Source of the DNA: Nemertoderma westbladi
Taxonomy: Eukaryota > Animalia > Xenacoelomorpha
Direction: 5' to 3'
DNA: 64,000 nt
Assembly: GCA_032718475.1 (NCBI GenBank)
Contig: JAUCBJ010006880.1
Location: forward strand, 50,218 to 114,217
In this document: positions 16,395 to 57,430 of the stretch, in pieces
How positions within the stretch are numbered: the first letter of the stretch is position 1
Layout of the letters: each line of letters opens with the position of its first letter
The notes under the pieces: model-generated
Databases searched by the model: none
Seen by the model: the letters and a program-made list of their open reading frames with translations, nothing else
Told to the model about the DNA's origin: nothing
Translations under genes and position numbers: made by a program

Positions 16395-16502
16395 GATCTT
16401 GACGAATCCCACGAATGGTTTTGTGTATCCAAGGATGTTGACAGCGCAGTATTGGTTAAAGATGTCAGCCCTGTATTAATAGCAATGATGGTAGAATTTA
16501 AG
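16395..16502 (+). CDS. Otopetrin coding exon 2 (36 codons, absent from the ORF track)
   Basis: Acceptor CCCCTTTTCACAG, donor GTGAGA. Encodes DLDESHEWFCVSKDVDSAVLVKDVSPVLIAMMVEFK, in phase 0 with both neighbours and containing the TM6 glutamate. Confidence 0.85.
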
Positions 16503-21925: not shown

Positions 21926-22362
21926 TCTGAAGAATTTGTGTCATTCAGCTGTCCTTAGCCTCAGGTGCGGATATTATTTTCAAATTTAAGAATCGGTACG
22001 CGGCACTGTCTGACAGTCAGACAGTACCGTACCGGTAGTACAGCAAACCAGTACTGCAGTAACTGCAAACTGCTAAATTCAGAAATTGAGTACCCGGTAC
22101 TATTTGAACATCAAATTATCAGTATACTGGACAAGTCCCTAAAAGGTGCCACCCTGCTCCATAGCGCGGGAAATTCAAATGATTGAAAGACATGTTATCT
22201 GTACTGGAAAGGGTGGCAGATCAGATCTGCCACCTATATATTTGCGGTAAATTCAAATCTGTTTTAATATTGAATACATGAATAGAGTAAGACTAATGTA
22301 ATTCATTGAATCAGAATAAATTATTCTTATCGGTTTAACTCACTCATCCGTTCAGCCGTTAA

Positions 22363-22907
22363 TGTAGGCGTTAATTTACCCTAATGGGTGAAGCTTACCT
22401 ATTTACATGGCTCGACCCAGAATATGTGCCTTTGCTATAAGAGGCTATGAAGCTCCATTGGCTGGACCCACAAATACTTGGACCAATGACAGTTCATTTA
22501 CATTCAATGTTGCTCTGCTATTGGTTTGTATTGTTATGATATATTTTGGGGCCCAGATCTAAAGACTATAAAAGCCTGAGTTTCAAGTTCATTATTCATT
22601 CGTAGCTTTGGGCTCAGCAAATTCATTTACCGCTGCTAGCGGCTACCTAGATTTGTTGGGAACCTAATAGGTTTATCTATAGTATACATTCATTATTATT
22701 TGGGTGTTTATATTGCTTGACTTTGAGATACATTATAAGTGGAATAGCCCTTCAATTGATCACGGTTAGTGTTTTCCGTATATTAGCCCGTTCGGGCCCC
22801 TGATGCTTTTCCCTTTGATGGACCTCTCAATCCAGTTCGTAGCCAGTAGCGCGTCATTTGATTGCTCCCGGCCAGCGCGAATCACAATGTTGTAAACCGG
22901 GCCAACA
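22363..22907 (+). repeat. 5' LTR of Bel/Pao A
   Basis: Appears identical to 29430-29974. Confidence 0.95.
22567..22601 (+). promoter_or_regulatory. Predicted LTR core promoter (TATA plus Inr)
   Basis: TATAAAA at 22567 and TCATTC with its A at 22598, 31 nt downstream. Confidence 0.6.
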
Positions 22908-23079
22908 TTAAGTAAATGAATTTGAGGCCATTTTAAACTTTTTCGATTAATAAATTGAATTTTCTATTTTATTAATTTATTTATTCTTCTTGATTGAATT
23001 ATAAAGCTTTATTAATCATACGTAACTTATTATTATTTTTACCGGTATATTATTTATGTTTCGTTCATAATTTGTTTAA

Positions 23080-23432
23080 TTACATGAACTGGTTATTGTT
23101 ATTATACCAGCGCTTGTGATTAAAAGGTTGATTATATTATTCAGTTCTGTTTTCTTTAAAATTTATATTAGGCTAAGATTACATGAACTGGTTATTGTTA
23201 TATCCCAGCGTATGTGATTGAATAGCTGATTATTACTATTACCGGTATAGTATTAATTTATGTTTTCTTTATAACTTTACTTTAAAAGATTACATGAACT
23301 GGCGATTTGTTATCCCAGCGCATGTGATTGAAAGCTGATTGATTATATTATTAATTTATGTTGACTGTATAACTTGATTTAATAGCCATTACATGAACTG
23401 GGGATTGTTATTATCCCGGCGCATGTGATTGC
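23080..23432 (+). repeat. Four ~100-bp repeats in the leader of Bel/Pao A
   Basis: TTACATGAACTGG...CCAGCG..TGTGATT occurs four times. Confidence 0.8.
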
Positions 23433-23807
23433 AACGGACATCATCACTAGCGATCTCCAAATAGGATCGCAATACAACCCTACTGTACTAAAACACTGAG
23501 TTTCATAAACTGAGTTTATACTGTTTACACCAGCGTATGAGAACGATTACTTAGGTAGTAACATAGCGACAAGCGCATAATTATTAGTAAAGAAGAACGC
23601 AGTCAATAACTTGTTTACAGGCACTGGGGTTTGTTTAAGAACCACAGCACCTGTGAATTAGTAAAACATTGAGAGCAACCAAACAAAGTATATTACATTA
23701 GATATCGCTCGGGTAAATATAGATTACACAAATAAACGTAACATAATAATATAAATAAATAAAATAAACTAAGAGTCAATCATATAACATCGAATAAGTA
23801 ATTCGTA

Positions 23808-28514: not shown

Positions 28515-29429
28515 CTGACGTAATAAAAGCTACAGTAGAGAAAATGATTTGGACTAAGGAAACATACTGTAATATTTAGTAAATTTATATAACTTTACTG
28601 GTTACTACTTTTGACATTGGTAAAATGTAAAGTAAAATGAAAATGTGTATTTGAATTTAATTAACCCAATTGATCTATATACCGGTACCTTTGTTTAAGG
28701 TAATCTAAATTGATAAACATGATGCTTTTAGCCCTCTGTTCTTACGTAGAACAAACGATTATTATTTGTGCCTTATTTGTACAAACGATGCTAAATTATT
28801 CTGCGTTTTTTTTAATTTAGCCCTCCGTTCGCAAAGAACAAACGAATATTTTGCTCTTCGAGCAACCGATGCTTTAGCTTTTAGTAATATAAGCTTTAGC
28901 CCTCTGTTCATATAGAACAAACGAAATATCTGCCTTTATGGCAAACGATGCTTCAGCAACATCTTTAGCCCTCTGTTCATTAAGAACGACCGAATATTTA
29001 TGCCCTGGTGGCGAACGATGCTTGAGCCATGTCTCATTGATATGTACTGTACGTACATATATTGTACATTATATATATTATTCCAAGTTATATTATAGTA
29101 ATATCGCACTAATTATTCGTTAGCGTTTAAGTATAGAAGATATACTGTATATAGTGATTTATGTTCAAATTATGTGCTATGAACTATCAGTTACATCGGT
29201 AAACTATAATGATGTTATGAATGTTCTGTAATTTTCGATTTTATTGTGCATTAGGCATACATATTGTAAGTATATAAATATAAATGATTCTACATTAATT
29301 TGATTGTTGTTGATACATTATTTAGATAGATAATTAGTGAATAATTGTTGAGGTTTAATTTGTCTAGGGATAATTTAACGCTGTTTATTGTTGTTAGTGA
29401 GAAGTCAGTGACTTCTGATGGGCGGTTAA

Positions 29430-29974
29430 TGTAGGCGTTAATTTACCCTAATGGGTGAAGCTTACCTATTTACATGGCTCGACCCAGAATATGTGCCTTT
29501 GCTATAAGAGGCTATGAAGCTCCATTGGCTGGACCCACAAATACTTGGACCAATGACAGTTCATTTACATTCAATGTTGCTCTGCTATTGGTTTGTATTG
29601 TTATGATATATTTTGGGGCCCAGATCTAAAGACTATAAAAGCCTGAGTTTCAAGTTCATTATTCATTCGTAGCTTTGGGCTCAGCAAATTCATTTACCGC
29701 TGCTAGCGGCTACCTAGATTTGTTGGGAACCTAATAGGTTTATCTATAGTATACATTCATTATTATTTGGGTGTTTATATTGCTTGACTTTGAGATACAT
29801 TATAAGTGGAATAGCCCTTCAATTGATCACGGTTAGTGTTTTCCGTATATTAGCCCGTTCGGGCCCCTGATGCTTTTCCCTTTGATGGACCTCTCAATCC
29901 AGTTCGTAGCCAGTAGCGCGTCATTTGATTGCTCCCGGCCAGCGCGAATCACAATGTTGTAAACCGGGCCAACA
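29430..29974 (+). repeat. 3' LTR of Bel/Pao A
   Basis: Direct repeat of 22363-22907. Confidence 0.95.
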
Positions 29975-32087: not shown

Positions 32088-34852
32088 TTATGGGATGATA
32101 GATAAGGTGGCGATAGGCGAACATTGAGGACACGATAGGGCGTGGTAACGATCGCTGGCTGAGTTTTGACAAAATTTACAGGTGCAGTCCGGACACGGGA
32201 TGTGGAAAGTTGAATTGTTGCAGAGTTTATAGTGAAAACCGTGAGATGGCGTTCTTGTTATGAGGTGCCTGTTTCTTTGGTTACTGCGAGTCCATGTTGT
32301 TGAAGTGAAGGCCGGTCCTAAATTGTAATTCTCAGTAATGAAATTTGCATTTCGATCCGATCTGAAGATGATGTATTGTTCTAGAATTTCAGCGCTGAAA
32401 ATACCTGGTGATGTTAGAAGGATGTCGTTTGTGAAGGTTTCTTGATGAGTTAATTTTAAAGCTAGAGTTGATGATGAAGAAATATGGAGTCCAAGGAGCC
32501 GTTTAAGAAAGGTAGATTTAATTTTATCCAATTCTTTTAGTTGAGGTAGTGTAAGTTTCGATCCTATTTCCGAGAGGACGTAAGATGCCATAGGGGCGAT
32601 TTTCATTTTAAAAATTTTGATTCCCGTCTCCACGGAGACTAGATGGAGATTTTTCAGGCGGCCAATGGCGGCGTAGGCTTTTTCTTTCTTTGCTTTTATG
32701 TGTTTCGTGAACGTCAAAGTAGGCTGGAGTACTACACCCAAATACTCATATTTATCGCATATCTTTACCAGTTGGCCATCATAATAGAAGTTATCATAGA
32801 GTGCTAAACGGCCTCCTCTTCGAAATTTAACAATTTTTGTTTTAACGAGATTCACCTCAAGAGCATTATCTTTGCACCATTTATGAAGGTTATTTAAACT
32901 GGGGTTTGATGAGTAGAAGGCTAAATCATCGGCGAAAAATATAGATTTCAAGAAGGCAGTAGCTGACCGCAAAGCAACAACAAGGTCGGCGATATACAAA
33001 ATGAAACTCGTTGGGGAGAAACAGTCCCCTTGTAGGAATCCGATAATCTGGCGTATTTTCTTTGAAAGGCAAAGACCATCAAACACCTGGATGTAGTTTG
33101 CATTTAGAAGATACTTGATAACATTGTAAAGTTTGCCTTTAACACCAAAATCGTTGAACAACTTGTTGAGATAAATTTTCCGACTGATGGAGTCAAAAGC
33201 CTTTCGGAAATCAACAAATACAACATAAACTTTACCATTCGCGTCAATCAATGAATTTATGTCAGAGATCAATCGATTTAATGCATCCAGAGTTGATTTA
33301 CCAGGTAGAAATCCAAACTGCTCTTCGGGTATCAACCAGCGGATTTTATTTAATATCCGTTTGTTTATTATAGAAGTAAAGATATTTAATAAAACGCTGA
33401 GGAGTGCAATCCCACGGTAATTATCTGGCAATGTGATCGCACCTCTACCTTTATAGAGTATCTTGACAATACTATACATCCAAGTACGTGGAAGCGAACC
33501 AATATTTAAGCAGGTATTAAAGAGGAGTACCAAAATATGTAGGATTAGAGGCAGAGAGTGTTTCAAGTGTTCGTAGTATATATTATCTGAACCACATGCT
33601 TTACGATTTCCTGTGTGTTTAATTGCAGCCTCAACTTCTTCACGAGTTATAGGACTGTTGTACCATTCGTTGTTTTCTAATTCAGCAGTTGATGTCTCTG
33701 GAATAGGCGGTATATTCGGAGGGTCTTTTGATTTACTTAGAAGATTTTCAAAATGAGATTCCAGTACATCCATCGCTATTGGGGCTACGTGATTTGGTTT
33801 ACATTCTTTTGTCAGAGTCCATGGAGTAATCTCAGCTCTTGCAATTTTGTCGAGTAAGCATTTTTCCTCGTGCTTCAGTCGCTTTGATTTGAGGAGTTTC
33901 TTGTAAACTTTTCTTTCATTCCAGTAAAGATCCTTGTCGTGTTCTGAGATTTCCCTGTTATAAAAAAGTATCATAACCTGTGATTTGAGTAAGCGGCACT
34001 CATTGTCAAACCACAATTTGCCATGATGATTGTAGTTCACTTGCTTCGGAATAGTAGAGTCAGCAAAAACTTTTGCAAGAAGGCGGTTTGCCTCGTCTAT
34101 GTTACTACTTTCTGTTAAAAGATCCTGTATCGTAGTAAGAAGAGGATTGCCTTTCAGTTTAGTTATATTTAAGTTGCGCGAAGGTAGTTCTGGGCGAATA
34201 TTTGGTACTGTAGTGGAACCAGGTAGGGTGAGGGACAGCACAACACGTTGGTGTTTTCTGATAGGGTTCACGTCAATAAGGGTAAACGGAGGTGGGCTCA
34301 TTGGGGTTGTAATCTTAACAAAAAATAAATCGATGGTGCTTACCCCTTGGGGGGAAATGTATGTATGTTCCAAGGGATCATTGATTAAGATAAAACCAAT
34401 ACTCTCTAAGCTATCTGTCAGGTCAGAACCACGGGAACCCTGGTCTATCCGGCAGTTAAAATCCCCTCCAATTACAATTGGAAGATCGGGTGAAGTGTGT
34501 GTTAATGCGAGGCTAACGTCTAGAATTATTTCTTCGGTACTGAAGTCAGGGTGGAAGTAAAAGACTAGGATGAAGGCAGTAGCAGTTTTTATCAAAACAT
34601 AGTTATCATCTGATGCAATATACTTTGGGTCCAGTTTCGGTTTGCATATTGCCAAAATACCACCGATAGGGCGGCCCCGTAATGGCTTCTTTGCTGGTTT
34701 TGGTAACAATAATAAGATACATTTGGGAACTCGAGGTCAGTAGAAAAGGTTTCAGTAAGAAGAATAACATCTGAATTTTGGTATATATCATGATTAAAAT
34801 TTCCAATGTTATCAGTTATGTACTTTAGTCCTAGAGTAACTTTGATATCTAG
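32088..34852 (-). pseudogene. LINE ORF2 (AP endonuclease, RT, C-terminal Cys/His), frameshifted near 34715
   Basis: DVILLTET, GRPIGG, GGDFN, STIDLF, NYRGIAL, QFGF, FVDFRKAFD, LQGDCFSP, FADD, YEYLGV. Confidence 0.88.
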
Positions 34853-35674
34853 TCAGTCTACATTTTTAGTAGTATCACGTCGATCAACAGTTGGAGCGAT
34901 TGAACAGGAGGAGCGTCGGGGGATACCCAAGGTCTCGCGGTCATTTCTGGTGAGAAGATAGTTGCGCACAGTTACACCTTGTTCCCATAACATCGGATCC
35001 ATCATCGAGCTCCTGTCTGCTTGGTCGGCAGTAATGTGAAAACTTTGGTAAGGTTGATCAGAGTGACGAGGGATTGCTGCTATGTCATCGAATTTTATAC
35101 CTTCTGATTGTAGGTACTCGCTAATTTCCAGACTAGTAACGTCCGGTAATAGCCGTCCAATATGTATATGGGACTTCCGTACAGCTGTCATCCTCGGGGC
35201 ACGAGTTGATGGAGGAGCAACGCGCACACTGAGGGAACTCTCTTTCCTTGATCCTCGGATTACGGAGCTGTTGGGCTGTCTTCTATTTCCGGTGCCAATG
35301 TCACTATGCGTGGTCAAAGCAGGTCCAGACCGTGACTGGAGGGTAGGAGGGGGTCCCATTTGCGAGGATGCTGTTACCGTGGCGGTATTACTACGAACCG
35401 TGTCGCTGTAGCTCATTCGGCCTAGATTGGCAGATTTCGATTGGAGATCGATCACCTGATTCTTCGCTTTAATGGTCTCTGCGCGAGCATCAGCGAGTTG
35501 GGAGACGGCTTCTGCCAGTTTACCTACTTGAACGTTGAACATTTGGCCCATCTTAATGAACGCGTCGATTAACTGTCGTTCATCGTCAACGGAAATACTC
35601 TTTTTGGTTTTTATACTTCTGACCAGAGATATTGAATCATCTTGAAGTTTAATGAAAGCCTCCACATCCGCCAT
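34853..35674 (-). CDS. LINE ORF1 (coiled coil plus RRM-like C-terminal domain)
   Basis: Heptad-like N-terminus; IHIGRL...YQSFHI...DPMLWEQGVTVRNY as in LINE ORF1 proteins. Confidence 0.75.
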   Translation of the reverse strand: MADVEAFIKLQDDSISLVRSIKTKKSISVDDERQLIDAFIKMGQMFNVQVGKLAEAVSQLADARAETIKAKNQVIDLQSKSANLGRMSYSDTVRSNTATVTASSQMGPPPTLQSRSGPALTTHSDIGTGNRRQPNSSVIRGSRKESSLSVRVAPPSTRAPRMTAVRKSHIHIGRLLPDVTSLEISEYLQSEGIKFDDIAAIPRHSDQPYQSFHITADQADRSSMMDPMLWEQGVTVRNYLLTRNDRETLGIPRRSSCSIAPTVDRRDTTKNVD

Positions 35675-37961
35675 AATTTAAAAAATCTCAATTTAAATAT
35701 AAAACACAAATCAGTATTTTAAATAATATCAGCCTATTGTAGCGCGCGTTTTAATATTTATTAGATCACAATCGTTTACTAATATTCGTGAGACAAGATA
35801 ACAATTACTATTTTGATGACAACTCTTTCGCATACCACCAACAACTCTAACTAACTAATATATTATTATTATATTTATATTATTATATATTTTATACTAA
35901 TATATTATTTATCTACATCCTGTCAGGAAACTGACAATGTGGGAGTCCGTGCTGGACTCTAACTGCAGAGAATACTACATCTCTCAATCTGTGGGTGGCA
36001 CTTTCACAATAATGATGCGCCGGGTTTACTGTAATTTTATTGCAGGCTATACTTTAATAAAAGACAATCAGGCACAAATCGTGTCTTTGGATCTGGCTTC
36101 CGTTTTGCTCGAAATTAAGAAATGGGGTCTTTTTCTCCATACTCATGTTCTAGAATACACACCGAGGAATATCAATATCAGGATGTTATTTTTAATTGCC
36201 TTTTTAACTCACACAGATGGGTATATTATATCGTTGGAACTTTGAGTCATTCGTGCACTGTATCCAATATAACATAATTGTTGTGTGTATTTGCTAACGT
36301 TCGCTTACATTATAATTATTACTAGACAGACGTGGCCTTCGGCGGCCACTGGCTTTCTACTTAGTTGATGATCAACTGACTGACTCAGCCAAAACTACTC
36401 TAAACGACTTTGATGAAATTTTCTTAGCGGCTGGCTGGCCGGATTCGAAGGTCCCTTGCATGTTCCATGTTCGGCTACTATACCTCCATAACCCTCTGGG
36501 CTCGAAAAATATACATAAACGAAGAAACGCCATGGGCGCAATGATAAGAACACCAGCTGGTGCTCATGCAAATTTATAGTGATGAGGGGCTCAGTAATGA
36601 TATTCAATGGATAGGCCCAAACTGCAGAGAAGTATTATACTTGCCAAGTTTTAGTAAGGTTGAGTTTATTACTCTCTCATTCTATCCCAGACACTAATCA
36701 TAAGGAGGCTCAAAGAGCAGGGATAGTTACTGTCAGAAAATTTGTCAGTGAGGGATATACTGTATATAGCTATCCATAGTCTATCCATCCATATGCTATC
36801 TATCTATCCATATACCGGAATTGCAGTTTGGTACACCTCCTACCTAGCTTGTTTGATTAAATTTTGCAAGTACATTGTTTTGATGGTTCATAATCGCGTT
36901 ACAAAATTTCAGATCGAATCTAGGTTTGGTATTCGATATATTTCGTTTTTTTGATATTATTTTGTCGCGAAATTAAATGTATATAGACATTCATTGACTG
37001 CTGTGGCAAAGGAATACATAGTACATACTGTAGTACATATGTAAACAGTTGATGTTTGATTAATGTCTGTGATAGTGTGAGTGAGTAAACACAACCTTAC
37101 TAAAACTTGGCAAGTAACATACTTCTCTAGTTTGGGCGTATCCGCACCAGCTGGTATTTCTATCATTGAGTCTATGGCAATTTTCGTGTTATGGGGCTAT
37201 TTTTCGTAATAAAAAAAAAGACACTTTAATAATTTTTTCAAAACCTTTTTTCCATATCCTGGGGTTGAGCTCCGTCGATTGATATAACTTTCATTGACGG
37301 ACGAGCTATAGCTTCGGATGAGCTCACCTGATATACACATAAATAAATATTGATAGAGAATACATTTACAGTTAGAAGTCCTGACGGTCTTCTAATAATA
37401 ATTACTGCCTTATCATGATGGTTTTGCTCACAGTTAAAGCAATAAATGACTTACAAAGTTATATAGTAATTGTAATTTATCTAACAATTGGATCTTCTAT
37501 AACACATTATAAATGGATTTAAGTTAAGTTTACGGATATTGCGGAATGTTGCCGTTATCCCGACACCAGGGGGGGAAAACGCCGATGCTGGAGGCGGGGC
37601 TTTACAGACCACGGAGTCCCGGCCAGTCACCGGATATTGATTGTGGAGAAGGAGGAATTTCTTAGATGCAGGATTGCGGTTAAGGAAAAGTTGCATTGGT
37701 TGGATATACTCTTTAATGTAACTTCCTATAGTTGAACCCTGTTCAACACCATTGAACCCTGATTGAGAATAATTTTGGGCTTCCCCAAATCAATATACAC
37801 CAAATATTCACAATAATTATACACGACAATATAAATCCCTACAGTATATTATTTAATTACCCACTGTTCGCTCAGATTTTAGCCTAACTAATGTTCCCCA
37901 GATTTTCCCTCGGTCCTAGTCTTGATGCCGTAGTGTCGGTGTCGGTCGACCCTGTCGCGTG

Positions 37962-40900
37962 TGTTAGGCGACCGTGTAGTGGTCGGTAACAATGTTCAGT
38001 AGGCCACTGTCTGTACGTGACAGCAATGTAGGCCTGTCTGTCTGTGGTGTAAGAAACAAGATGTATGACATATGACAGTCTGTACTTCTATTCTGACAGT
38101 CTACTGTAATTATGTTACACAGTAAGCTGCACGGTACAAAGGTGCTATATTATGTTAGGTCCTCATTCCTAGTATCCTAACATCACCCCCACACAAAATG
38201 ATTTGTTATACTGTATGTATAATAAAGTTTTGAATTATGGGTACTCTACGTATCTCGAGTTTATCCACACATATAATTCTTCAACCAGTATATGTTGTTA
38301 TATTTAGTTCGAGTTCGTATAATTATTGAATTCATCAAACAGTATATTGTTTCCCACTTCGCAATGTTTTTATTACTTGACCTTGACCTTGAGTCTGTCC
38401 CGGTTCCCGCGTTGCTGGATACTGAGATTGTCCCTGCGAAATAGGATCAACTGAAGTACCTTCCTGTGTGGATCCTTGGGTCGGTTCCATGATGTCACCA
38501 CGTCCTGTTGCTAGTGGTAGACCGCCGGTTGGTACTCTTTTACCACTTCCGACACTGGGACCTGCTCCAGCGTGACGGCTCATCGTAGTAGTTGGATTCG
38601 AATTGGTAATGGATGTGGTACCTTCTTTGTCATTCCATGGGTTGTATCGACTCCTTATTTGGTTAACATTGCGTTTGACCAAAATATCACCAACTTTAAC
38701 CATGTATACTCGCGATCCAATCCTTTTTATTATTCGTCCCGGGAGCCACTTTACAATTATTTGCCCCCTACCCGGTCGACTATAGTTTTTTATCCAGACC
38801 GCTTCACCGATCTCGAATTTTCCACTTGTTTCGTCGCTTTTGTTACTCGTCACTGGATATTCCAATAACCGTTCTAACCGAGTCTTTGTAGGATATTGGA
38901 AAATTGATTCGTTCGGGGTTTTTCCTCTTGGTGTGTACAGTGAATTTCTATCCTGCATTAGGAAATTACTGATCTTATCTTGTATAGTATCGTTTTCGAT
39001 ACTGAACTTTTGTTTCTTCATCGAGTTCTTTATACTTTGCACAGTTCTTTCAGCAGCACCATTTGAAGTTGGTGAATAGAATGCGGAACTCCAATGAGTT
39101 ATACCGTTGTCTGTAAAGAAACTTTCTATTTCTGTTGAAATGAACTGTGGTCCATTATCACTAAATATTATCGCCGGAATTCCTGTAAATGCAAACATAT
39201 TTTTCATTTCTGTTATAATTGTAGAAGACTTTGCATTCTTTAATACTCTGGCATCTTTCCAACCAGAATACGTATCAACCATACCTAAAATCGTATGTTC
39301 TTCGAAATCTGCTAAATCTGTGTGAATTCGTTCAAATGCTGCCTTAGCTGTTGGTAATGACACATATTCTTGAGGTGGACTGTTGGCGAATTGTTGACAT
39401 GGTGTACACTCTTTGATGAATAACTTTATATCATCTACTATACCAGGCCACCAACAGATGTCTGCTGCTTTTGTGAGCATTCTTCTTTCTCCGATGTGTG
39501 CGGAATGTAGTTCCTTCATTACATGTGCCTGTAAGCTGGATGGTATTATAATTCGATTGCCACGCATAATTATTCCTTCTTTGATTGTAAGTTCAAATTC
39601 AATAGCTTTGTAATGACGTAACTCAGGATTATTTGTTTGTATCTTTTCGCCATATTCGACTGTGCGTTTCAAATGACGTAATCCCGGATCAGCCTCAGTA
39701 GCATCTTGTAATCCTTGTTTGGTTAAAGGAATGTCTACTATGTTTTGTTCCTGTTGTAAGTCCATAGCTCGAATGTCTATATCTGATTTATCCTTGTAAA
39801 TATTATCTTTGGTTGCAGGTGTAAGTCTTGATAATGCATCAGCAATATTCTCTTCTGAACTAATAGCTGTAACTGTGTAGTTATGAGCTGCTAGCTCAAC
39901 AGCCCAGTGTTGTAACCTTGAAACAGTCGTAGCAGGAAGCGCTTTTAATGGACCAAATATTCGTTTGAGTGGTCTGTTATCGGTAACGATTGTAAACTTA
40001 TGACCGATTAAGAATTGCTGGAATTTTCTTGTACCAAACATTATAGCAAGTGCTTCCCTGTCGAGCTGGCTATATTTTCTCTGATGCGTATCAAGTGTAG
40101 CTGATGCAAAAGCAACTGGTGTGAATTCACTTTTCTCATTAATCTGCCCCAATATGGCAGATACAGCCTTTTCAGACGCATCGGTGATTAATTCCGTTTT
40201 CATCGATGGATTAAAGTGAACCAGTAGTGTACAATTCGATATGGCCTCCTTCACATTATTGTATGCATTGTTGGCTTCTTTTGACCATTCAAATGGTGTA
40301 TCTTTCTGTAGTAATTTGTACAATGGGTTGGATATCTCCGCGTATTTGTGTACATACTTCCGTAAGTAATTCATAAAACCCAATGCACTTTGTAATTCTT
40401 TCTTTGTGGATGGAGGTTTCATATCCCTGACTGCTTGTACCTTCTTTGGATCTGGCAAAAATCCTTTGCTTGTAATTATATGCCCACAGAATTCCACTTC
40501 TGACTTCACAAATGAACATTTCTTCATTCCTATAGTAAGTCCAGCTTCCCTGAGTGCTGTAAACACTGTCTGGAGATCCCGTAAGTGCTCTTCCATATTG
40601 TTAGAAGCTATTAGAAACTCGTCCATGTATGATACTGAAATGTATTTGCTCAATGTACAATGAACAACTTTAAGACATTTGGCTGCAGCGGGAGTGATTC
40701 CATATGGCAACCTTGTAGGTTTTAACAATCCTAATGGTGTCGCTAATGTAAGCAGCGCTTGGCTTTCTTTATCGATTGGCAATTGGTTGTAAGCTTGTGC
40801 CATATCCAACTTCGTAAAAATTGTCTTGCCCTGCAGTTTGGCGGACATTTCCTCTTGAGACATTAAAGGGAAATAATCTTCTATGAGGTACTGATTTACA

Positions 40901-43179
40901 GTGCTCTTATAGTCCCCACAGATTCTGACGGATCCATCGTTTTTAGGCATAATTACTAATGGTGTAGCCCAATCAATGTTTTCTCCCTCATCTGTATGTA
41001 CTAGACGTCCTTCTTTTATGTCAATCTTTAATTGTTCTATGACTTTATCCTTGTATGCATGTGGGACTGATCTTGAATGAAGGAATTTGGGATTTGTGTT
41101 TGATGTTTTGATCCTAATTTGTAAAGGTTCTCCCTTATAACATCCCACACCAGTTAGAACCTCTGTAAATTCTTGTAACATGGTTTGTAACCGATATGGT
41201 AAATCTTTCGTGTCGAACTGAGTATTTTGGGTTTTAATATCCTGTTGTAACAACTCATCAATACTAGTTCCGCGGTGCACTAAATGTTGTAGCCAATATA
41301 GACCAAATAATGGTGAATTTTCGGTTTCACTCTCCTCTGCAATAATTAGCGGCATATTTTCTAACTTTGCCACATTTGTACCTGGGAATTCAACCACAAC
41401 GTAAATGACTCCCTTGATCCTGGCAGTTCCTTTGCAGTATCCACGTCATTTTGAAGGACAATCATGTAATTGTATATCTTGGAACTGTTCAATGTATTTG
41501 TTGTATGGTAATATGCTATGCTTAGCACCAGGATCGAATTCCATTTGTATTTTCTTATTATTTATAAGAATATCTAGTTGAATCGAATTAACTTTGGGTA
41601 AAGTCACTGTATTAATCTCAACTTCATTGCCTAAATCTTGTAAAATATCTGTATGTTTCATGAATAAATCGTCATTGTGCTCTCCTTCATCTATGTCAAC
41701 CATTCCAACTGAGCCTCTTTGACTGTTTGGCTTAAACTGATTAGATCCGGTTGCATTACGTTTTTTAAAACATGCCGTTTCAACATGTCCCTTAGCTTTG
41801 CAATATCGGCATATGATATGTTCTGGCATTCTGCATTCTGTAATTTTATGGCCTTGTTTTCCACAACGGTAGCAAGTAATCTGCCTACTTTGACTAACCT
41901 GCCGTGGTTGTGAAGTATATGAACTTGAACTACCTCTGCTAGTTCCTCCACGGTATCCTACACGACCCCGGCTGTTTCCAAACCGACCACGATTGGAGGA
42001 TCCTTGGTCTCTCTGACTTGTATTAACACGTTGTATCTCAATCTCTGATTTGTTTCTATCATACGCTATGTTGCGAGCTTCCTCAAAGCTAATTGCCGTA
42101 TTTAGCGCTTCAGGGAATGTATCTTCCTGCTTTTGTATCAATTCGGTTGCAACATGATTATCTATTAAACCAGCAGTCAGCTGTTCTCGTAATTGGCCAT
42201 CCAAATCTGTAAATTGACAATCTCTGGCAAGGTTACGCAATCTTTTTGCATAATCTGTAATGCTTTCCTCTTTTTGCTGTGTACACAGTCTGAATTTTCT
42301 CCTTGCTGCTTCCTTGGACTTGCCTTTGCGATAGTAAGTTGTAATGGTATCCAACAATGTATCAATTGGATCCTTTGTAATATCTGCTGGATATCGTAAA
42401 TCATTCAGCAGATCTAATGTTGCTAAACCGCAGTTCGAAATGAATATATCTGTCTTGGCTTGTTCTTCTTCTAATGCTGTCATTGCTGTATTGTCCGGTT
42501 TCACCCAGTTTGTAGTTCTGAGAATCGTACGGAACATAACCAAGTATGTCTCCCACCGGTCTTTCTCAGGGTTAAAAGGAGCACAAACGTTACTGTATTT
42601 AACGCCTCTGTAAGCCATTGTAATTTGTTGGCTAACTGTATTATTGTTGTATTGCTGAACAGCTGAAATTCTATTAGTAACTTGCTGAGGCTGACTGTAG
42701 CGTAGCCTGCAGACTGTCAAAGCAATGTATTCAGGTATTGCACTCGTTCTGAATTGTACAACTGTAGCTGTACTACCGGTACTGTAGACTGTAGGTAGGT
42801 AGGAGTGTAGGCCTACCGGTTTCCGGTCCGGTCAGACGGTACAGTTCAATCTTTGCAGTTTCATCTTCTGTATTGAAGAACACCAACGCATTATAATTAA
42901 ATGTACATAAGGTATAATTAAATTAATAATTGAGTTTATATTTATCGCAGCGCCAATTTGTTAGGCGACCGTGTAGTGGTCGGTAACAATGTTCAGTAGG
43001 CCACTGTCTGTACGTGACAGCAATGTAGGCCTGTCTGTCTGTGGTGTAAGAAACAAGATGTATGACATATGACAGTCTGTACTTCTATTCTGACAGTCTA
43101 CTGTAATTATGTTACACAGTAAGCTGCACGGTACAAAGGTGCTATATTATGTTAGGTCCTCATTCCTAGTATCCTAACA
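37962..43179 (-). mobile_element. Ty3/Gypsy LTR retrotransposon (Mag-like) nested in the Bel/Pao B LTR
   Basis: 221-bp apparently identical LTRs (37962-38182, 42959-43179); 5-bp TSD GCGTG; primer-binding site (PBS) TGGCGCTGCGA (tRNA-Ser-like); PPT TGTGGGGGTGA; two CCHC knuckles. Confidence 0.95.
38335..42618 (-). pseudogene. Gypsy gag-pol in a single frame, with a TGA at 41446-41448
   Basis: The two listed ORFs are in frame (..CPSK*RGYCKG..VVEFPG). Protease FDPGA, RT YMDE, RNase H TDAS, integrase HHCC and DDE. Confidence 0.88.
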
Positions 43180-44469
43180 GCGTGTCCATTCCACCCCTCC
43201 CGAACCCCGAAGGGATCGATCATCGAGAACCAGCACGGCTTGGCTAAGGGTCGGTCCAGTCGGTAGACTCTGTCGCGTATCCGTACCACCCCTCTCGAAC
43301 CCCGAAGGGATCGGTCATTGAGAACCAGTACGGCTTGGCTAGGAGTCTGTCGTGTCGGTGGACCCATTCGCGTGTCCGTCCCACCCCTCACGAACCCCGA
43401 AGGGGACGATCATCGAGAACCAGTACGGCTTGGCTAGGGGTCCGTCGGTTCATCGCAGAAACCCAACCACCTAGGCTTTCCGAGTCCCTTTCAGGCTCGT
43501 AGTCGCTTCGGTAGCCGAGAAACTGCTCCGAACAGTCGGTAGGCCGGTAGGCCGGTAGAGTCCAGTCCTTTGTCTTTCGACCCCGTCGCGTGTCCGTCCC
43601 ACCCCTCACGAACCCCGAAGGGAACGATCATCGAGAACCAGTACGGCTTGGCTAAGGGGTCTGTCGTCGGTTCCCGTCGCAAATCCCTGGTACAAGCAGC
43701 CGGCGTTCCGATGTCCTTTTCAGGCTCGTAATAACTGCTGTTGACCAGAGACCGCTAAGGGCAGTCCTCGTCAAACCCTTCCTCTGTTAGTCGGTAGACC
43801 CTTTCGCGTGTCCGTCCCACCCCTCACAAACCCCGAAGGGAACGATCATCGAGAACCAGTACGGCTTGGCTAGGGGTCTGTCGTGTCGTTTCCCGTCGCA
43901 AGTCCCTGACACAAGCAGCTGGCGTTCCGATGTCCTTTTCAGGCTCGTAATAACTGCTGTTGGCCAGGGACTGATAAGGGCAGTCCTTGTCCTTTAGGCC
44001 TGGCGCGTTACCAAATCCACCTCTACAGGCAGCAGGAAGTTGGCCAGGGCCTAATAGTAATCAGGCTAACCTGAATACTGCTTGAATTTTCTATCCCCCC
44101 TTGGCCCTTATAAACATGAAATTAGTCCCGTACCCTGTAAGTCGCCCCAAAGTTCGCCCATAAATCGCCCCCAGTTTATAGAATGTGCCCAAAACCCATG
44201 GTCCCGCACCCAGTAGTAATATCGGAATAATCATTTTAAATCAATACAAAAAATATTCAACTCGCGTTATGAAAAGTTGAAATACCGCGAACAGTCCCCC
44301 CCCCAATGACCTTCGTGAAGTCTGTCGGTAGATTGAGTTTGCGTAGGTCATTCCCAATATAAAAAACCCAAATTTAATATTGCATAGTTTTGATTAATTT
44401 GGCCTAGAGTTTATATATATATGTATAAAAATAAATGTTCAATAAATGTTCCTGGAATATCCCGATCCA

Positions 44470-48324: not shown

Positions 48325-51300
48325 TCACCAATGTCTGCAGCAGGATCCTCTCGTAGAGTCACCACTGTCATTGCCTTCATGAAGGCACAGCCTCTGGATA
48401 GGGCGTTGGTAGTGGCCCTTTGCCGTTCGTATCGTCACAGTCCTCGCAAGTCCGTCTTTACTCGGATGTATTGTCACAACTCGCGCCACAGGCCAGTGGA
48501 CGCGGTCTTTAAGGTCTTCTTTTACTAGTACCATGTCGCCAACTTCGACATTCCTGTAGGTGTTGTTCCACTTCCTCCTGGTCCGGAGGGTTATGAGGTA
48601 CTCCTGGGCCCAGATTCTCCACCAATGCGCTGCCAACGCTTGGGCCTTCTTCCAGTTTGTATATCTCGCAATATCGTTGGGATCCGGAAACATTGTCTCC
48701 GGGAGAACATGAGTTTTAGGTCTCCCCAGTAGGTGATTAGGAGTAAGGGGCTCCAGGTCTGTGGGGTCGTCGCGGATAGGGACAATGGGTCGGTTGTTCA
48801 GGGTATCCGTGATCTCGCAGAATGTTGTGCGGAGGGTGTCATGGGTTACCCGGGTGTCTCCTAGAGCGACGCGCATGGATCATTTCACTAGGTCGATCAG
48901 TTTCTCCCATACCCCGCTCGTATGGGGTGCTAGGGGGGTCTGGAAGTGCCACTGTATCTGGTGTTCCTTCCAGACTTGGGATGCGGTGTTATCGGTAAAC
49001 CATCCCTCGATCGCCTCTCTAAGTTCTCTTTCTCCTCCCACAAAGTTTGTGCCGTTATCGGAATACATGTGACGACATGTCCCATTGCTTGCCACGAACC
49101 GACGCAGAGCGTTGATGAATGCGTGTTGCGTAAGGTTCACCACAATGTCTAGGTAGATTGCCCTAGACCTAAGGCATGTAAATATGGCCCCCCAGCATTT
49201 GATGTTGGATCGTCGTTCGATGACCGTAAACGGACCGAAACAGTCCACTCCGGTGACGTAGAATGGTGGGGAATCGGGCTGTAGACGGGTGGCTGGTAAG
49301 TCGGCCATCCTTTGTGTGAGTGGTGGCGCTAGATATCTTCTGCAGACAAAGCAACGTTTCAACACTTTCCGGATCAGTGGCTGGATGTGTGTGATCCAAT
49401 ATCTTTGTCTTATATTAGCTATAATCCAGTTTTGTCCTGCGTGATGGTTCTCCTCGTGACATTGTTGAATTAATAGCTTGGCTAGTGTTGAAGTTCCGGG
49501 CAGAAGCGCCGGGTATTTAACCTCATATTCGACCGGGGCGTTTGCCATCCGGGTATTCAGTCGGATCAGTCCGTCCTCTCCCATCATTGGTCTCAGTTGG
49601 TAGACTGGGCTATCCGGTTTCAAGGTCTTGCCCGCACTGAGTTGTTCCCACTCATCGGGGAAACTTTCTCTCTGGACATATCCAACGATACACTTCTCCG
49701 AGATAATGAGTTCTTGTATACTCCGTTGAACTATCGGCTTGTTGTTTTTCCACTGTAGGAAGTTGCGAAGGGTTATAATGTGGTGGATGAGCCGTCTCAT
49801 TGATGAGGTTCGCTCGATCAACAGATGTAAAGACGCCGCTGGTTGCATGATCGTAGCAACATTATAGTACCTGCCCGAGTCCTTTGCAGGCTCAGTCAGA
49901 CAGCTATAAATTTCCACTGCGTTGCTTCTATGGACTTTACGGATCTCTTTATCGTCCACGGAGTATTTTCCGCTATCGAGTTCGGGGTCGAATCGGGTAC
50001 TCCATGTTAATTGTGGCTGCTGTAGGAATTCCGGGCCTGTAAGCCAGAGTTTACTTTTACCGAGTTGTTTTGGGGTGGCGCCTCGGCTTGATAAGTCCGC
50101 TGGATTTTCTTTCCCGTTCACATGGTGCCACTGTTCTCGGCCGGTACACTGTTTAATCTCCGTGGCTCGGTTCGCAACAAACGTAGTGTGACGCCGTGAT
50201 GGAGAGTGGAGATAATAGAGAACTATACTCGAATCTACCCAGAAGTGTTGAGACTCGATGGGGATTCGTAGGTTCCGCATGACCATGCGATTCTGTCTTA
50301 CTGCCCAAACTGCAGCCTGTAGCTCGAGTCTTGGAATCGTTGCTACGAATTCCCCGGATACTGTCTTGGCTTTAGAAAATAAGAAGCTCGTATCGCCGTT
50401 TCCATCGTTGCTGAGTCTTCGTAAGAAGGTGACTACGCCAATTCCGGTATTCGAAGCATCCGAGAAGGTATGGAGCTGGAAGATTTCGGTGGGTAGTTTA
50501 TCGAGGAAGAACGGTCGAGGTATCCGCATAAGATGAAGGTGTTCGAGCTGCTCCGTCCATTTTCTCCATTTGACGCTGAGGTGTGGGGGGAGTTCTTCGT
50601 CCCATCCCAGTCCTTCTATCCACATTTCCTTAATCATGTTCATTCCGGCCAAGGTTACTGGAGATATGAAATTTAGTGGGTCGAAGATGGCGCTTTTTAT
50701 CGACAAACATCCCCTTTTTGTCATAGGCTTGGGTAGGGGTTTATATTTGAAAATGAATTCGTCTGATTCTATGTCCCATTCAATCCCGAGTACACGGTGT
50801 TCCACATCCTCCGAATACATTTTGTTGTTTTCCAGTCGGATGTCCTCCGGAAACTTTTCCATAAGTGTTTTGTCGTGGGATCTGAACTTCACAAGCGGAA
50901 AACCTCCTTTCTTTAGACATTCTACCATCCCCATTGCTAGCCGATATGCCGCGTCCACATTATATGCGCCGGCGCATCCATCGTCCACGTAAAAGCATCG
51001 TCGGATGGTTTCTATGACGGTTGGAGGGAACTCGTTTTCGCACATAGTTGCCGTCCTCTTCAGCATGTCACTGCATGCTACCGGCGAGTCCTTAGCGCCG
51101 AAGATCCTGACGACCATACGCATTATGTCTACATCCTTTATCGTGAGTTGACTAATCTCCTGTTGAGTTAGTGTTTTATCCGTCCATAGGATGCGTAGAC
51201 AGTCTGAGTCTCTTGGTAGCGTACGAACTTGATGAAACATGGCCTTGATGTCGCAGGTGAATGCTACCCGGTTTTCCCTGAACCTGATCAATACACCGAT

Positions 51301-54300
51301 GAGTGTACTATATATGTTGGGTCCCGTGTAAAGCTGACTGTTTAGGGATTCGCCCTGGTACATAGCGGCGGCATCATTTACCACTCGGATTTTCCCACCC
51401 TTCTGGGCTTCTACCACATAGTGGGTTGGGAGATAATATGTTCTTTTACCACCTTGCAGTTCATTCCGTGGTACCATTTCTGCTAATCCATCGTCGAGAT
51501 ATCCTTGGATTACGGTATTATATTTCTCCTTTATCTCGGGTTGGTCATTCAGCCGGCGTAGAATCCCCTTAAGTCGCCTAAGTGCCATGCTGGCGTTGTT
51601 TGCCATTGGTTTGTTTGGGTCCTTCCATAACATAGGTGAACACCAGTGTCCGTCTTTGAACGTGGCCTGGTCGAGAACGTCCATACAATATTGATCCTCT
51701 TCGGACGGGTTTTCATCCTTTTCAGCGAACTCCTGGGTCTCTAGATTAAAATATTTCGTCATCTCTTGTTGGGTTTTCTCGGTCTCCAGAAACAAATCCT
51801 CGTCAAGGTCCGTAGCTGAGCAATAACCCACGGAGGTTACATTCTCTTTAATCTGACATTTGGGAAGGTAGGTATAGGTGTCAGTAGTTTCTTCCTTAAT
51901 GCCACAGAGTGTCCATCCCATTATTGTTCGTTCAGCATAAAATCCGTCATCCTGTTTTATAGATCGGGCGATATCTCCGGTGGGGATGTGTAGTTCCGGT
52001 GTATCAAGTCCGATCAGTAGGGTGATGCGGTTTACGTCCAACTGCGGACACCTCAGATCTACATCGTCTCGGTCCAATTGTATGAGGGGGGCGTACTCGG
52101 CCGATTGTCGGAACCGCACTTGGAGGTCTGTGTGTACCAAGGCGTTCTTGATGGTTAACTTAACCGTTTCGTAGCCCTTCATCACTCCTTCCATCTGGAG
52201 TTGCACCTCCCCGGACTCTACCTCTCTGTTATCGGTGATGGTTTGTATGGGCCGTTTACAAGGTTCATATTCTAGGCCGAGTTGCTCGAGGAAATCCCGG
52301 TCGATGATGGTTCCGTCAGACCCGTTATCAAGGAACGCGAGCGTCATCAGGGATTTGCCGACTCCTTGAATCCTTACTGGGATTACCTTTGCGAAGACCA
52401 TGTAGCGGTGATTTATAAGATTAATCGTGGCTGAAATATTTGTTACTTGTGGTGTATCGGTGGAGATTTTAAACGGGTTGGTTTCTCTCCGTTGGGTTGT
52501 CCGGGTTCCTTTGAAAACGTGGTTCGTTTCTCCTCTTCGCTTGGCTTCGATCCGAAAGGGGAGGGTAGTGAAATCGAAGTTCGCGGGGATGTGGAGGAGC
52601 GTGTGATGACGTTGGTCGTTACAGACGGCACAGCACGATCTTTGGTCGCAATCCCGAACATAGTGACCTGTTCCAAGACACCGGAAGCATCCTCGGTGTT
52701 TCATTATCGCCTCGAAGCGTGGGACGAGTTCGGCGAACTGAAACTTCCTGCAGAATTCCACTTTATGTTTCTCTCCACAGAAGAGACAGAGGAGGGAGTT
52801 TGTGATGCCTTCCCTCTCGGTTGCCCAATTCGCAAGGTAACACGCCCATTCCTCGGCGGATGTCGGTTCCTCGTAGTCTTCGTCGTCGGAATCCTCGGCC
52901 ATGGTGATGGCCATCGTACTCACCGGTGGGGGGCGGAATTTCGGTTTCTGAGGGGGTATCTTACTCCTGGAGTTGCTCTCTATTCCGTCCAACTTGGCGA
53001 GACTCTGTTTTGAAAACATCGAGTCATTCATGGCTTCGGAGATATCGTCCAGGAATGCCGACATTTCAAGGAAGCTAGGATCTCGATCTGGATGTCTGCG
53101 CCGGAGATCTATGCATTTATAAGCCCATTTACTTTGTAGCCATCCGGGGAACTTCCGGGCGATCTGTCGGAGGTTTAGAATGTTGTTCACCTGGTCCTCC
53201 TTATTCAAGGGTTTCAGAGTATAGTAGGCATCCTTCATAGAGTCGGAGAATTCCTGGATATTCTGTGGGTCCCCTAGTGATCCCGCGTCCTGTATCAGTC
53301 TCTCTAGAGTTTTATTAATTATAGTTCCGGTATTTCCGTATCTTTTATCTAGAGTTTTCCATGCGTCATAGTATGCCTCATGAGAACCTCCCTCGAAACA
53401 TGCAATAATTCGGCGTGGTTTGTCACCCAGGTATTGCGATAAATATACCAATTTCTGTGCGTCGGCTATGTCTGTTGATCCAATCTGCGCAAAGAACCAT
53501 TTCTTGAATCTGAGGTAATCGACGGGATCTCCTTCGAAGGTGCGGATCTCCATCTTAGGCATGGCAAGGCGGTTTTCCAACGCCCGGATAATACCGACTT
53601 CGTCTGAACTGGAGTGACTCGGAGGGTTATAGTTATTGGCACTCACTCCCATACTCGATGGATCAATGATAGATGGAGTTTTAATGATGATGCGACTACG
53701 GGTTTGTGGTGTGGATGTAAATGGGTTGTTGGATCGGGGAGTGGCGTCCCGTTCCGAGTCCCTTTCAGGCTCGTACTTGGGTACACTCGTTGTCGTGGGG
53801 TTGGATGGGAAACACGGTTCCTCATTTTTCAGCGTAACCGGTGGGGGATGGAACACCGGTGCTTGTGCCGATAACGTAGACTGTATGATAGGCGGGATCT
53901 CGGGTTTCGGAAGTTTTGCCGCTGTTGGTGTAAATGACTTCTCTAACTCCGGTACCGGGATTGGTTCATATTCCTGATCTATTTCCCTTTCCCAGTCCTC
54001 GTATAGTTGGATATCTCGTTCTATAAGTGCGGCTTCATATTCCGCGAGTTTCGCAATATCCGCATTCTTTTTGTGGATGAGAATCGCTTGGGCCTCGGCG
54101 TGTTGTTTACGCATTTCTGCTTCCCATTTACGTTGTTCGATCTCTTGTTTGGCCTCTCGTTCACGTTGTTCAGCCTCCCTTTTGGCCTCTCGTTCACGTT
54201 GTTCAGCCTCCTTTTTGGCCTCTCGTTCATGTTGTTCAGCCTCCTTTTTGGCCTCTCGTTCACGTTGTTCAGCCTCCTGTCTATGTTGTTCGGCCCGCCG

Positions 54301-54966
54301 TTCGACCTCTTGTTCGGCCTCCCGCTTTTGCATTTCGGCGGCTAATATGTCTTGCTCGGTTTGCAGTTGAACGTACTCATCTTCCATCCGAGCTTTGAGG
54401 GCTAATGCCTTCTGTTCTCGTAGCTGATCTCGGAGTGGCGGCCCCCCTTGAGAACTGCGCGCTGAGCCGGATATCTCGCTCCTAGCGCTGGAGCGCTGGT
54501 GTCTTGAGGATCCCGTTTTCTTTCGATGAATTGTGGTCCTGGTATTGGAGGTTCGCACCGATTCTGCGTCTGTTCTTTCAGCTCTCTTGTAGTACTGTTC
54601 TTCGTAGCCTCTCACGAGGCTAAGGGTCCTCCGTTGTTGTTTGCGGAATTCGTCTAGGCGTGCAACGTGTTCTTCCAATTTGGGATAATTTACCTGGTCG
54701 GTGGTGGGGATGAGTTCTTGGTACGCCTGTATCATTCTCTCATATCTTTGTAAGATACTTCGGATACTCTGAAGCTGAGTTTGTATCTCGTTGAGGGGGG
54801 TTTCGACTCCCTTGAGTTGTTTCTCTATACGTTGGTACGCTCGAGTGACTCCGCCTTTGAGAGCACCTAGTCGACGAGCCATGTTCTTGATGTTCGGTAC
54901 CTCGTCGGTTTCCGAGTCTGTGTGGTGATCCATCTCATCGGTATCGGATACGTTATTTGTCGTCAT
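48325..54966 (-). pseudogene. Bel/Pao B gag-pol with integrase; in-frame TGA at 48880-48882
   Basis: Three Zn knuckles, LDNGS, FYVDDG, FSDAS, HHCC, GVDCFGP, SDNGTNF, GVWE, then LVK*SMRV continuing to PLTPNHLL..WAQEYL. Confidence 0.93.
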
Positions 54967-55154
54967 TGTAGCGCCTCGTCGATAGCTAGATAGGCGATGT
55001 CGTAAAACAGTTCCTCGTAGGTATTGTACTCAGCTTGGACCACCCGAACGGTAATCCTGAATCGTCCGACGTTCGTTCCTTGTACTTCAACCTCGACATG
55101 CCAGATTCCTGGCTCAACTTGGATTATATCAATGGGTGTGATCGATACTTCCAT
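54963..55154 (-). CDS. 63-aa upstream ORF overlapping the gag start (ATGA)
   Basis: Its TGA (54965-54963) overlaps the gag ATG (54966-54964). Composition looks protein-like; function unknown. Confidence 0.4.
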   Translation of the reverse strand: MEVSITPIDIIQVEPGIWHVEVEVQGTNVGRFRITVRVVQAEYNTYEELFYDIAYLAIDEALQ

Positions 55155-55401
55155 TCCCTGTTAACAACTCTCCAAATATGTGATCTGCCGACTACGAGTT
55201 GGTTAGATCGAGTTTGTTGATTAATTAAACCACGACTTAGTCTTAACTCAAATACCAGAGTTTCCTCGTAGTGGGTGCTGGCAAGCACATAGAGAGTTTT
55301 GAAGAGTATTGTAGGATTCTCAACTTCCACCAGTTGAAGTTGGCCGCGTTTTATTCTCAATTTTGACACCCTGTCAAAATTGACCGAATTATTCTCAATT
55401 T

Positions 55402-56698
55402 TGTTGCCGTTATCCCGACACCAGGGGGGAAAAACGCCGATGCTGGAGGCGGGGCTTTACAGACCACGGAGTCCCGGCCAGTCACCGGATATTGATTGTG
55501 GAGAAGGGGGAATTTCTTAGATGCAGGATTGCGGTTAAGGAAAAGTTGCATTGGTTGGATATACTCTTTAATGTAACTTCCTATAGTTGAACCCTGTTCA
55601 ACATCATTGAACCCTGATTGAGAATAATTTTGGGCTTCCCCAAATCAATATACACCAAATATTCACAATAATTATACACGACAATATAAATCCCTACAGT
55701 ATATTATTTAATTACCCACTGTTCGCTCAGATTTTAGCCTAACTAATGTTCCCCAGATTTTCCCTCGGTCCAAGTCGTGATACCGTAGTGTCGGTGTCGG
55801 TCGACCCTGTAGCGTGTCCGTTCCACCCCTCCCAAACCCCGAAGGCATCGATCATCGAGAACCAGCACGGCTTGGCTAAGGGTCGGTCCAGTCGGTAGAC
55901 TCTGTCGCGTATCCGTACCACCCCTCTCGAACCCCGAAGGGATCGGTCATCGAGAACCAGTACGGCTTGGCTAGGAGTCTGTCGTGTCGGTGGACCCGTT
56001 CGCGTGTCCGTCCCACCCCTCACGAACCCCGAAGGGGACGATCATTGAGAACCTACGGCTTGGCTAGGGGTCCGTCGGTTCATCGCAGAAACCCAACCAC
56101 CTAGGCTTTCCGAGTCCCTTTCAGGCTCGTAGTCGCTTCGGTAGCCGAGAAACTGCTCCGAACAGTCAGTAGGCCGGTAGAGTCCAGTCCTTTGTCTTTC
56201 GACCCCGTCGCGTGTCCGTCCCACCCCTCACGAACCCCGAAGGGAACGATCATCTAGAACCAGTACAGCTTGGCTAAGGGGTCTGTCGTGTCGTTTCCCG
56301 TCGCAAGTCCCTGACACAAGCAGCTGGCGTTCCGATGTCCTTTTCAGGCTCGTAATAACTGCTGTTGGCCAGGGACTGCTAAGGGCAGTCCTTGTCCTTT
56401 AGGCCTGGCGCGTTACCAAATCCACCTCTACAGGCAGCAGGAAGTTGGCCAGGGCCTAATAGTAATCAGGCTAACCTGAATACTGCTTGAATTTTCCATC
56501 CCCCCTTGGCCCTTATAAACATGAAATTAGTCCCGTACCCTGTAAGTCGCCCCAAAGTTCGCCCATAAATCGCCCCCAGTTTATAGAATGTGCCCAAAAC
56601 CCATGGTCCCGCACCCAGTAGAAATATTGGAATAATCATTTTAAATCAATACAAAAAATATTCAACTCGCGTTATGAAAAGTTGAAATACCGCGAACA
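55402..56698 (-). repeat. 5' LTR of Bel/Pao B (1297 bp)
   Basis: Matches 37547-37961 plus 43185-44293, with substitutions and fewer repeat units. Confidence 0.93.
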
Positions 56699-56703
56699 CG
56701 GAA

Positions 56704-57430
56704 TGACGTAAACCACTCAGCAACCACTAACCACCACCAGATCTTAGGCTATGAGTGGAAAAGCTCAACCATATTCCACCATGCGACATCGCTCGGATTA
56801 CCCGTGACTATTACCCACCCCCCACCAGATCCCCCAGTTTTCCGCCGACCCCGCTACCTGCCACCGAGGTCTGAGAACGCAGTAATTGAGCAGTTTGTTT
56901 ATCGAGGACCTTCATCTCACAGTTATAAACTCTAACCTAAACCGTATCAACTCTAAATTCAAACCGAACCTACCGAAACGCCAACGGCTAGTTCTGACTA
57001 ACCGTAGGAAGGCTAAGGATATAGCTTTTTTCCAGGAGGACAAGAGCGGTAATATCATTGTTTGTGGACCAGACAGATAAACATGCCTCCATCCAGCGCA
57101 TATTGGGAGATAAAAAGTATACCAGAAACTTGAGAAGGACCCCTCCGCTCGGTTCCGAACTGAACTCCGTAAGGTTATCACGCAACTTGACCTCGGTAGC
57201 AGTGATCTAAAAGTACACCTCTTTCCTCCAACTTATGACGTCGGATACCCATTCATCACCCTCAAGGATCACAAACCCCGGGAGGAATGGCTGCCATCTC
57301 TCAATGGTGGGCTGATACCAATAGCGCGCCCCATTATCTCGAACACCAACGCATTCTTCCGCCACTGGGTAAGTTACTCAACCGATATCTACAACCTCTA
57401 GTACAAAGGTCATTGAACTACCTAGAGAGT
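56704..57430 (+). mobile_element. Degraded Penelope-like RT fragment next to the Bel/Pao B insertion
   Basis: Frameshifted pieces NLPKRQRLVL...QEDKSGNIIV, YQKLEKDP and ITLKDHKP resemble Penelope DKG and KxHK motifs. Confidence 0.6.

Follow-up and report, generated by a model that had tools for sequence, protein, structure and literature searches.

Primer-binding sites complementary to their own LTRs suggest self-priming, often from spliced RNA, in a Bel/Pao retrotransposon lineage

Two Bel/Pao retrotransposons, elements A and B, lie in a 64-kb stretch of DNA (the whole stretch analyzed, hereafter the window), and each carries just past its 5' LTR a predicted primer-binding site (PBS) whose perfect 13-nt complement lies in its own LTR. 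Element B most probably starts reverse transcription by self-priming as Tf1 does, using RNA of its own LTR instead of a tRNA, with a primer that in the wider group is often built by splicing. The complementarity is real and not a matter of chance. The splice-built part comes from relatives of the two elements, both window copies being intron-less.

Element B occupies the minus strand, with the following parts.

55402 to 56698, minus strand: 5' LTR of Bel/Pao element B, 1297 bp, with TGTT...AACA ends and a target-site duplication (TSD).
37547 to 44293, minus strand: 3' LTR, interrupted by a nested Gypsy at 43179-37962.
48325 to 55029, minus strand: gag-pol, with DUF1759, protease, RT, RNase H, integrase and DUF5641.
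44294 to 44303, minus strand: polypurine tract (PPT, a G-run) and 2-nt spacer.

The layout is that of Bel/Pao, gag-PR-RT-RH-IN between TG...CA LTRs, with a PPT and a 5-bp TSD that reads TTCCG at both flanks. Within the polyprotein the protease (884-944) is followed by YVDD at 1347, RNase H motifs at 1523-1600 and the integrase from 1848; a single in-frame stop falls in the integrase region (48882-48880). Pfam matches are to Peptidase_A17 (E 7e-38), DUF1759 (E 2e-13) and DUF5641 (E 8e-30). By these Pao-type Gag and Pol domains, element B is a member of Bel/Pao (Belpaoviridae). Its U3 contains GC-rich tandem repeats of ~95 nt (window 56400-55780 and 44000-43180, minus strand), and the nested Gypsy is inserted in this array in the 3' LTR, which is ~218 nt longer than the 5' LTR.

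Between pol and the 3' LTR, element B has an additional coding region (47094-44470, minus strand) made up of one frame interrupted by a stop (47094-45409) and an ORF of 269 aa whose match to a zinc knuckle is weak (E 0.1). No Pfam family scored above cut-off across 47094-44470. By eye, one stretch in these extra 3' ORFs resembles what we take to be a DEDD 3'-5' exonuclease. Elsewhere the window holds Otopetrin exons (12369-17871, plus strand), a non-LTR RT fragment (14654-15754, minus), an ORF with RRM and CCCH zinc-finger domains (21263-21940, minus), a LINE-type element (32088-35677, minus) and a 12-bp minisatellite in two arrays of opposite orientation (3942-4392 and 5081-5453).

The region around the 5' LTR end of element B contains the predicted priming features.

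55387 to 55399, minus strand: predicted non-tRNA PBS, 2 nt past the LTR, assigned from sequence.
55400 to 55401, minus strand: 2-nt spacer, AA, between LTR and PBS.
55617 to 55629, minus strand: 13-nt LTR segment, complementary in sequence to the PBS; predicted self-primer.
55669 to 55676, minus strand: TATA-like candidate motif, 47 nt upstream of the 13-mer.
55567 to 55572, minus strand: candidate poly(A) signal ATTAAA, 44 nt downstream of the 13-mer.
55357 to 55383, minus strand: leader hairpin of 12 perfect bp, overlapping a second, 11-nt PBS copy at 55361-55351.
55612 to 55616, minus strand: 5-bp helix arm, predicted to pair with U5 at ~55423-55427 (probability ~0.9) and to stack on the primer/PBS helix.

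A sequence-only reading of this DNA had placed the LTR end at 55402, followed by AA and a 13-mer (55399-55387) without TGG, and had proposed a perfect complement at 55629-55617; every position is correct, and the complement is confirmed. It is also present, exact, in the 3' LTR (37774-37762). No TGG follows the 5' LTR, and the 18-nt PBS for a tRNA 3' end listed in the ICTV profile is absent from element B. The 64-kb window contains no tRNA genes, and Rfam gave no match across 55000-56800. With 13 nt and a spacer of 2, element B falls within the self-primer criterion published in the available excerpts of PMC6317226.

Could AT-rich sequences simply match by chance, or the pair be a functionless inverted duplication at the DNA level? 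The 13-mer of element B is AT-rich, and chance matches of 11-12 nt do occur. We nevertheless hold this to be exceedingly improbable. A match of at least 13 nt arose in 2 of 5,000 shuffles of the element B LTR and 9 of 20,000 shuffles of its leader, and among 445 non-overlapping internal 25-mers the first alone has a 13-nt match.

The same reading had noted several transcription signals, each of which is found where it had put it. The TATA-like motif, TATAATTA, begins at 55676; an Inr-like TGATTT has its A at 55645, a start site guessed from the motif, which would put the 13-mer at about +17 to +29; ATTAAA lies at 55572-55567, and a second TATAAA is found in the LTR at 56585. The predicted primer-PBS fold of element B varies with the assumed RNA start: the helix forms with a probability of ~0.9 for a start at 55645 or 55629, and for a start at 55700 the PBS pairs mostly with 55661-55673.

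Element A and the nested Gypsy allow comparison within the window.

22363 to 29974, plus strand: Bel/Pao element A, with 545-bp LTRs and TSD GTTAA, without integrase.
37962 to 43179, minus strand: nested Gypsy, with identical 221-bp LTRs, a 5-bp TSD and a TGG-type PBS, and no self-complement.

In element A, a 13-mer at 22618-22630 is complementary to the PBS at 22912-22924. The claim of a second family with an unrelated 13-mer stands, with matches of at least 13 nt in 3 of 5,000 LTR shuffles and 5 of 20,000 leader shuffles. The spacer is 4 nt at both the PBS and PPT sides of element A and 2 nt at both sides of element B, where the PPT spacer agrees with the earlier reading. A TATA-like motif lies 51 nt upstream of the element A 13-mer. 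Elements A and B are 31% identical over 1,216 aligned residues, and in both the complement is contiguous, with no intron inside the primer segment. The LTRs of element A are near-identical but its ORF stops after RNase H and lacks integrase, so element A is an internally deleted copy. The Gypsy, offered earlier as a contrast, serves as one: it has TGG 3 nt past the LTR and a self-match of only 5 nt.

Relatives were collected by protein search, which gave at least 120 homologues among the matches listed, at 30–41% identity. Those named come from fish, corals, echinoderms, molluscs and a hemichordate, a host range whose resemblance to that of Sinbad/Sailor (available portions of PMC3118150 and PMC6238403) we treat as a lead only. 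An alignment of 41 sequences was used to fetch 77 metagenome loci; a scan of viral contigs found no relatives. Where the LTR end was fixed by both copies, TGG was absent from most leaders, and a search for contiguous matches returned only 7–11 nt before introns were allowed. These matches are short because the complement in the relatives' LTRs is interrupted by sequence with the marks of an intron, namely GT donor, pyrimidine tract and AG acceptor. The splice rule applied below was derived from these examples: it admits listed donors and acceptors, introns of at least 40 nt and at least 3 nt of complement per side, and needs a PBS that starts 0–5 nt past the LTR.

Complementarity to the own LTR is the norm among these elements. 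The fixed-end set comprises A, B and 10 loci whose LTR ends were set independently, and 11 of these 12 carry an own-LTR complement of at least 10 nt (10–15 nt), seven of them solely after splicing. The sole miss, L028, bears a TGG site; its family, L028/L033, is the only TGG-type family sampled. Swapping leaders and LTRs between fixed-end elements gave a match of at least 10 nt in 1 of 132 pairs, and shuffled leaders matched the observed length in 0–2 of 300 trials for each of the 11 positives. With LTR ends found by scanning, 12 of 13 elements have a complement of at least 10 nt; the miss is L030 as read from its 5' copy, where the donor is a variant; its 3' copy gives 11 nt. L040 and L050 have 11-nt matches with ends picked by eye.

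Altogether 25 of the 77 loci were scored, the rest including loci without LTR or leader and family duplicates. Across a set of 24 elements selected as positives, full swaps reached at least 10 nt in 9 of 552 pairs, seven of these among close relatives, and leaders displaced by 30 nt matched in 1 of 24. Scanning a Bel/Pao library for inverted matches against shuffled controls was the check proposed by the sequence-only reading, and in the loci scored here matches exceed those of swapped and shuffled controls. Shuffles, swaps and shifts together contradict chance, which is refuted at the family level, and a DNA duplication is unfit as a source because the exon-exon junction is absent from DNA. 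The inference of a conserved mechanism, drawn from two families, is supported far beyond those two by the fixed-end and scanned-end sets; the contiguous geometry does not hold as a rule, since most relatives need splicing.

Twelve fresh loci yielded five usable ones, of which L086, L078 and L081 each have an 11-nt spliced match. L083 misses the strict rule; judged by eye, 10 of its 11 positions pair. In L080 the end scan chose a spurious 12-nt internal match, so scanned-end counts are inflated by chance. The contigs L078–L089 are located in prokaryote genome bins and are most likely misassigned animal host DNA. Five loci (L010, L034, L036, L004 and L014) were left out of scoring, their LTR end or leader being undefined. 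Among them, L010 (8310-8966) is a long-branch relative with an LTR repeat that does not end in ACA and an undefined PBS complement; it may be an exception to the own-LTR complement. L016 is without the acceptor part.

The 24 elements share a common anatomy. In 18 the match depends on removing a GT..AG intron of 67–478 nt from the LTR, and in six (A, B, L031, L035, L038 and L055) it is contiguous. Matches span 10–15 nt, with 11 nt in 12 of the 24. In 16 of the 24 a poly(A) hexamer follows the primer at a distance of at most 120 nt; three have one upstream. By eye, a G-rich motif often sits a few bases upstream of the primer (L016, L018, L024, L026, L035, L056, L072 and window 55643-55630), and further PBS-like copies occur in L018, L022, L050 and L053, as in the leader of element B.

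These extra copies bear on a different function for the pairing. It could be a structural switch for packaging, dimerization or translation control, with an unrecognized host RNA such as a tRNA fragment as the primer. PBS-like copies in U5 or leader (55361-55351 in element B; L018, L022 and L053) suggest alternative folds, and priming by tRNA halves without TGG is described for Copia lineages in the excerpts available of PMC6317226 and PMC10886601. We judge this reading decidedly unlikely. The paired stretch always begins at the place of a PBS, 0–4 nt past the LTR in 24 of 24 elements, with GT (19) or AT (5) as its first letters. PBS sequences mostly differ, 224 of 276 pairs agreeing at just 3–6 of the first 10 letters, so no single host RNA fits them all; each family would need its own, identical also to its own splice junction.

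Predicted primer-PBS pairing is at least 0.5 in 17 of 24 folds; it falls below 0.5 in seven, which weighs against self-priming. In unspliced folds it is at most 0.17 in 17 of the 18 intron-bearing elements. A Tf1-like stacked second helix was considered as a conserved feature and rejected, being strong in B, moderate in A and absent in L055, L061, L068 and L038. In a quick, unrooted tree that leaves out 14 rows (near-duplicates plus a single very long branch) and six loci too short to enter, A and B group as sisters (SH-aLRT 99), each on a long branch, and their position is unsure. The contiguous forms are scattered among spliced ones, requiring five changes for six rows, a number as low in 179 of 500 shuffles. 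On this tree the scatter fits repeated loss or gain, and the Bel/Pao self-complement may have arisen once or several times.

Evidence that the LTR intron leaves the RNA comes from the L030 family. L030 and L031 are 90% identical, and L031 lacks precisely the GT..AG stretch. A contig from an RNA run joins L030 position 7778 directly to 7947; the 168 nt left out have GT..AG ends and equal the predicted intron. A loose end in another RNA run of that study is compatible with this junction. The joint was not seen in runs X5 and X17, which does not prove its absence. Runs X1–X3, RNA runs of that study, contain nothing on L068, a locus that X17 covers completely and with no joint; the RNA runs therefore do not simply reflect DNA, whereas X17 is DNA-like. 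The junction evidence consists of contigs from one study and one family, with 29 letters on the short side; in this one family tested, excision of the LTR intron as RNA is real. Intron-less DNA copies in the L030 host may be a source of the spliced contig. Relatives thus display GT..AG ends, a pyrimidine tract and, in L030, removal in RNA, as expected of spliceosomal introns.

We propose the following route for element B. The LTR segment would be transcribed near the 5' end of the RNA and then pair with the PBS. The element's own RNase H, whose motifs are present and whose activity is predicted from sequence, would cleave directly 3' of the segment, between 55617 and 55616, as in Tf1. RT would extend the cut end across the spacer, U5 and the part of R downstream of the cut, and the extended DNA would transfer to R at the 3' end, which has its poly(A) signal downstream. 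Plus-strand synthesis would recopy the PBS out of the primer, which would explain why the PBS matches a junction confined to RNA. With strong-stop DNA expected to end at the cut, all sequence upstream of it, and with it the intron, would come from the 3' LTR copy. The intron would persist through an unspliced 3' LTR copy, and splicing of that copy as well could give intron-less forms like A and B.

For what would be a large Bel/Pao lineage of aquatic animals, we favor with moderate confidence a self-primer that the host spliceosome builds from two LTR exons. Splicing would then license replication and confine the primer to the 5' copy, and each cycle would rewrite the PBS from the spliced primer. 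Elements A and B would be intron-loss derivatives with the spliced primer fixed in DNA.

The primer might instead be element RNA supplied by the LTR copy at the 3' end or, in trans, by a short spliced transcript of the LTR ending at its poly(A) site. The segment is identical in both LTRs of element B, and the spliced L030 contig is compatible with either copy; it also reaches 25 nt upstream of the primer, so in that molecule the primer is not at the cap. We regard this source as unlikely, given that in spliced RNA just 46–277 nt separate the 5' primer copy from the LTR end downstream of it, and that this copy pairs locally in 17 of the 24 folds. That 18 of 24 elements still have their intron would be simplest to explain if the 3' copy were mostly unspliced.

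If the model is correct, self-priming would extend to a third superfamily, beyond Ty3/gypsy and Copia, across many animal phyla. Splicing would build the primer, a step absent from the literature searched, and would tie retrotransposon replication to host splicing; the PBS would probably also be removed as a target of tRNA fragments. The model would also explain why searches for contiguous LTR-PBS matches overlook most of these elements. The term "PBS" does not occur in the available portions of three Bel/Pao surveys (PMC3118150, PMC554778 and PMC6238403). The open-access articles and listings searched, portions of PMC3601003 and PMC6934838 among them, contain no report of Bel/Pao self-priming or of a splice-built primer.

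How do these elements compare with known systems? In the Belpaoviridae profile the PBS is 18 nt long and serves host tRNA-Arg or tRNA-Gly (PMC8742986). Element B has the same Pao-type domains, gag-PR-RT-RH-IN order, LTRs and PPT as Belpaoviridae/Semotivirus in the ICTV profile, whereas the tRNA PBS is absent from A, B and 22 further scored elements. In our judgment the tRNA PBS is descriptive, and membership in Belpaoviridae is set by Pol. The TAR lineage of Ty1/copia (Houba, Osr-1) is predicted to self-prime from at least 10 nt that begin 0–5 nt past the LTR (PMC6317226, in part). Element B shares that sequence criterion, but TAR elements are plant Copia, and the portion available describes no intron-split primer.

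The closest parallels are Tf1/Tf2 of S. pombe, Tj1 of S. japonicus, the Tf1/sushi group and Tcn1, which have a non-tRNA PBS and an own-LTR complement of ~11 nt (excerpts of PMC7175516, PMC4600332 and PMC6317226). In Tf1 the element's RNase H cleaves at the 3' edge of the primer, which RT then extends (PMC7175516, in part). Like Tf1/Tf2 and Tj1, element B has a non-tRNA PBS beside the 5' LTR that matches its own LTR. Unlike Tf1/sushi and Tcn1, which are Ty3/gypsy, the elements here belong to the Bel/Pao superfamily, and in 18 of 24 an intron divides the complement, a division that does not appear in the available descriptions of the Tf1 group. In Tf2, alternative start sites decide whether the self-primer is present in the RNA, which gates reverse transcription (PMC5341516, in part); here the gate would be splicing in the intron-bearing families, lost in A and B. 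Element B, Tf1-like in its proposed mode of priming, stands outside the Tf1/sushi group, as its Pol is Pao-type and not that of a Ty3/gypsy chromovirus.
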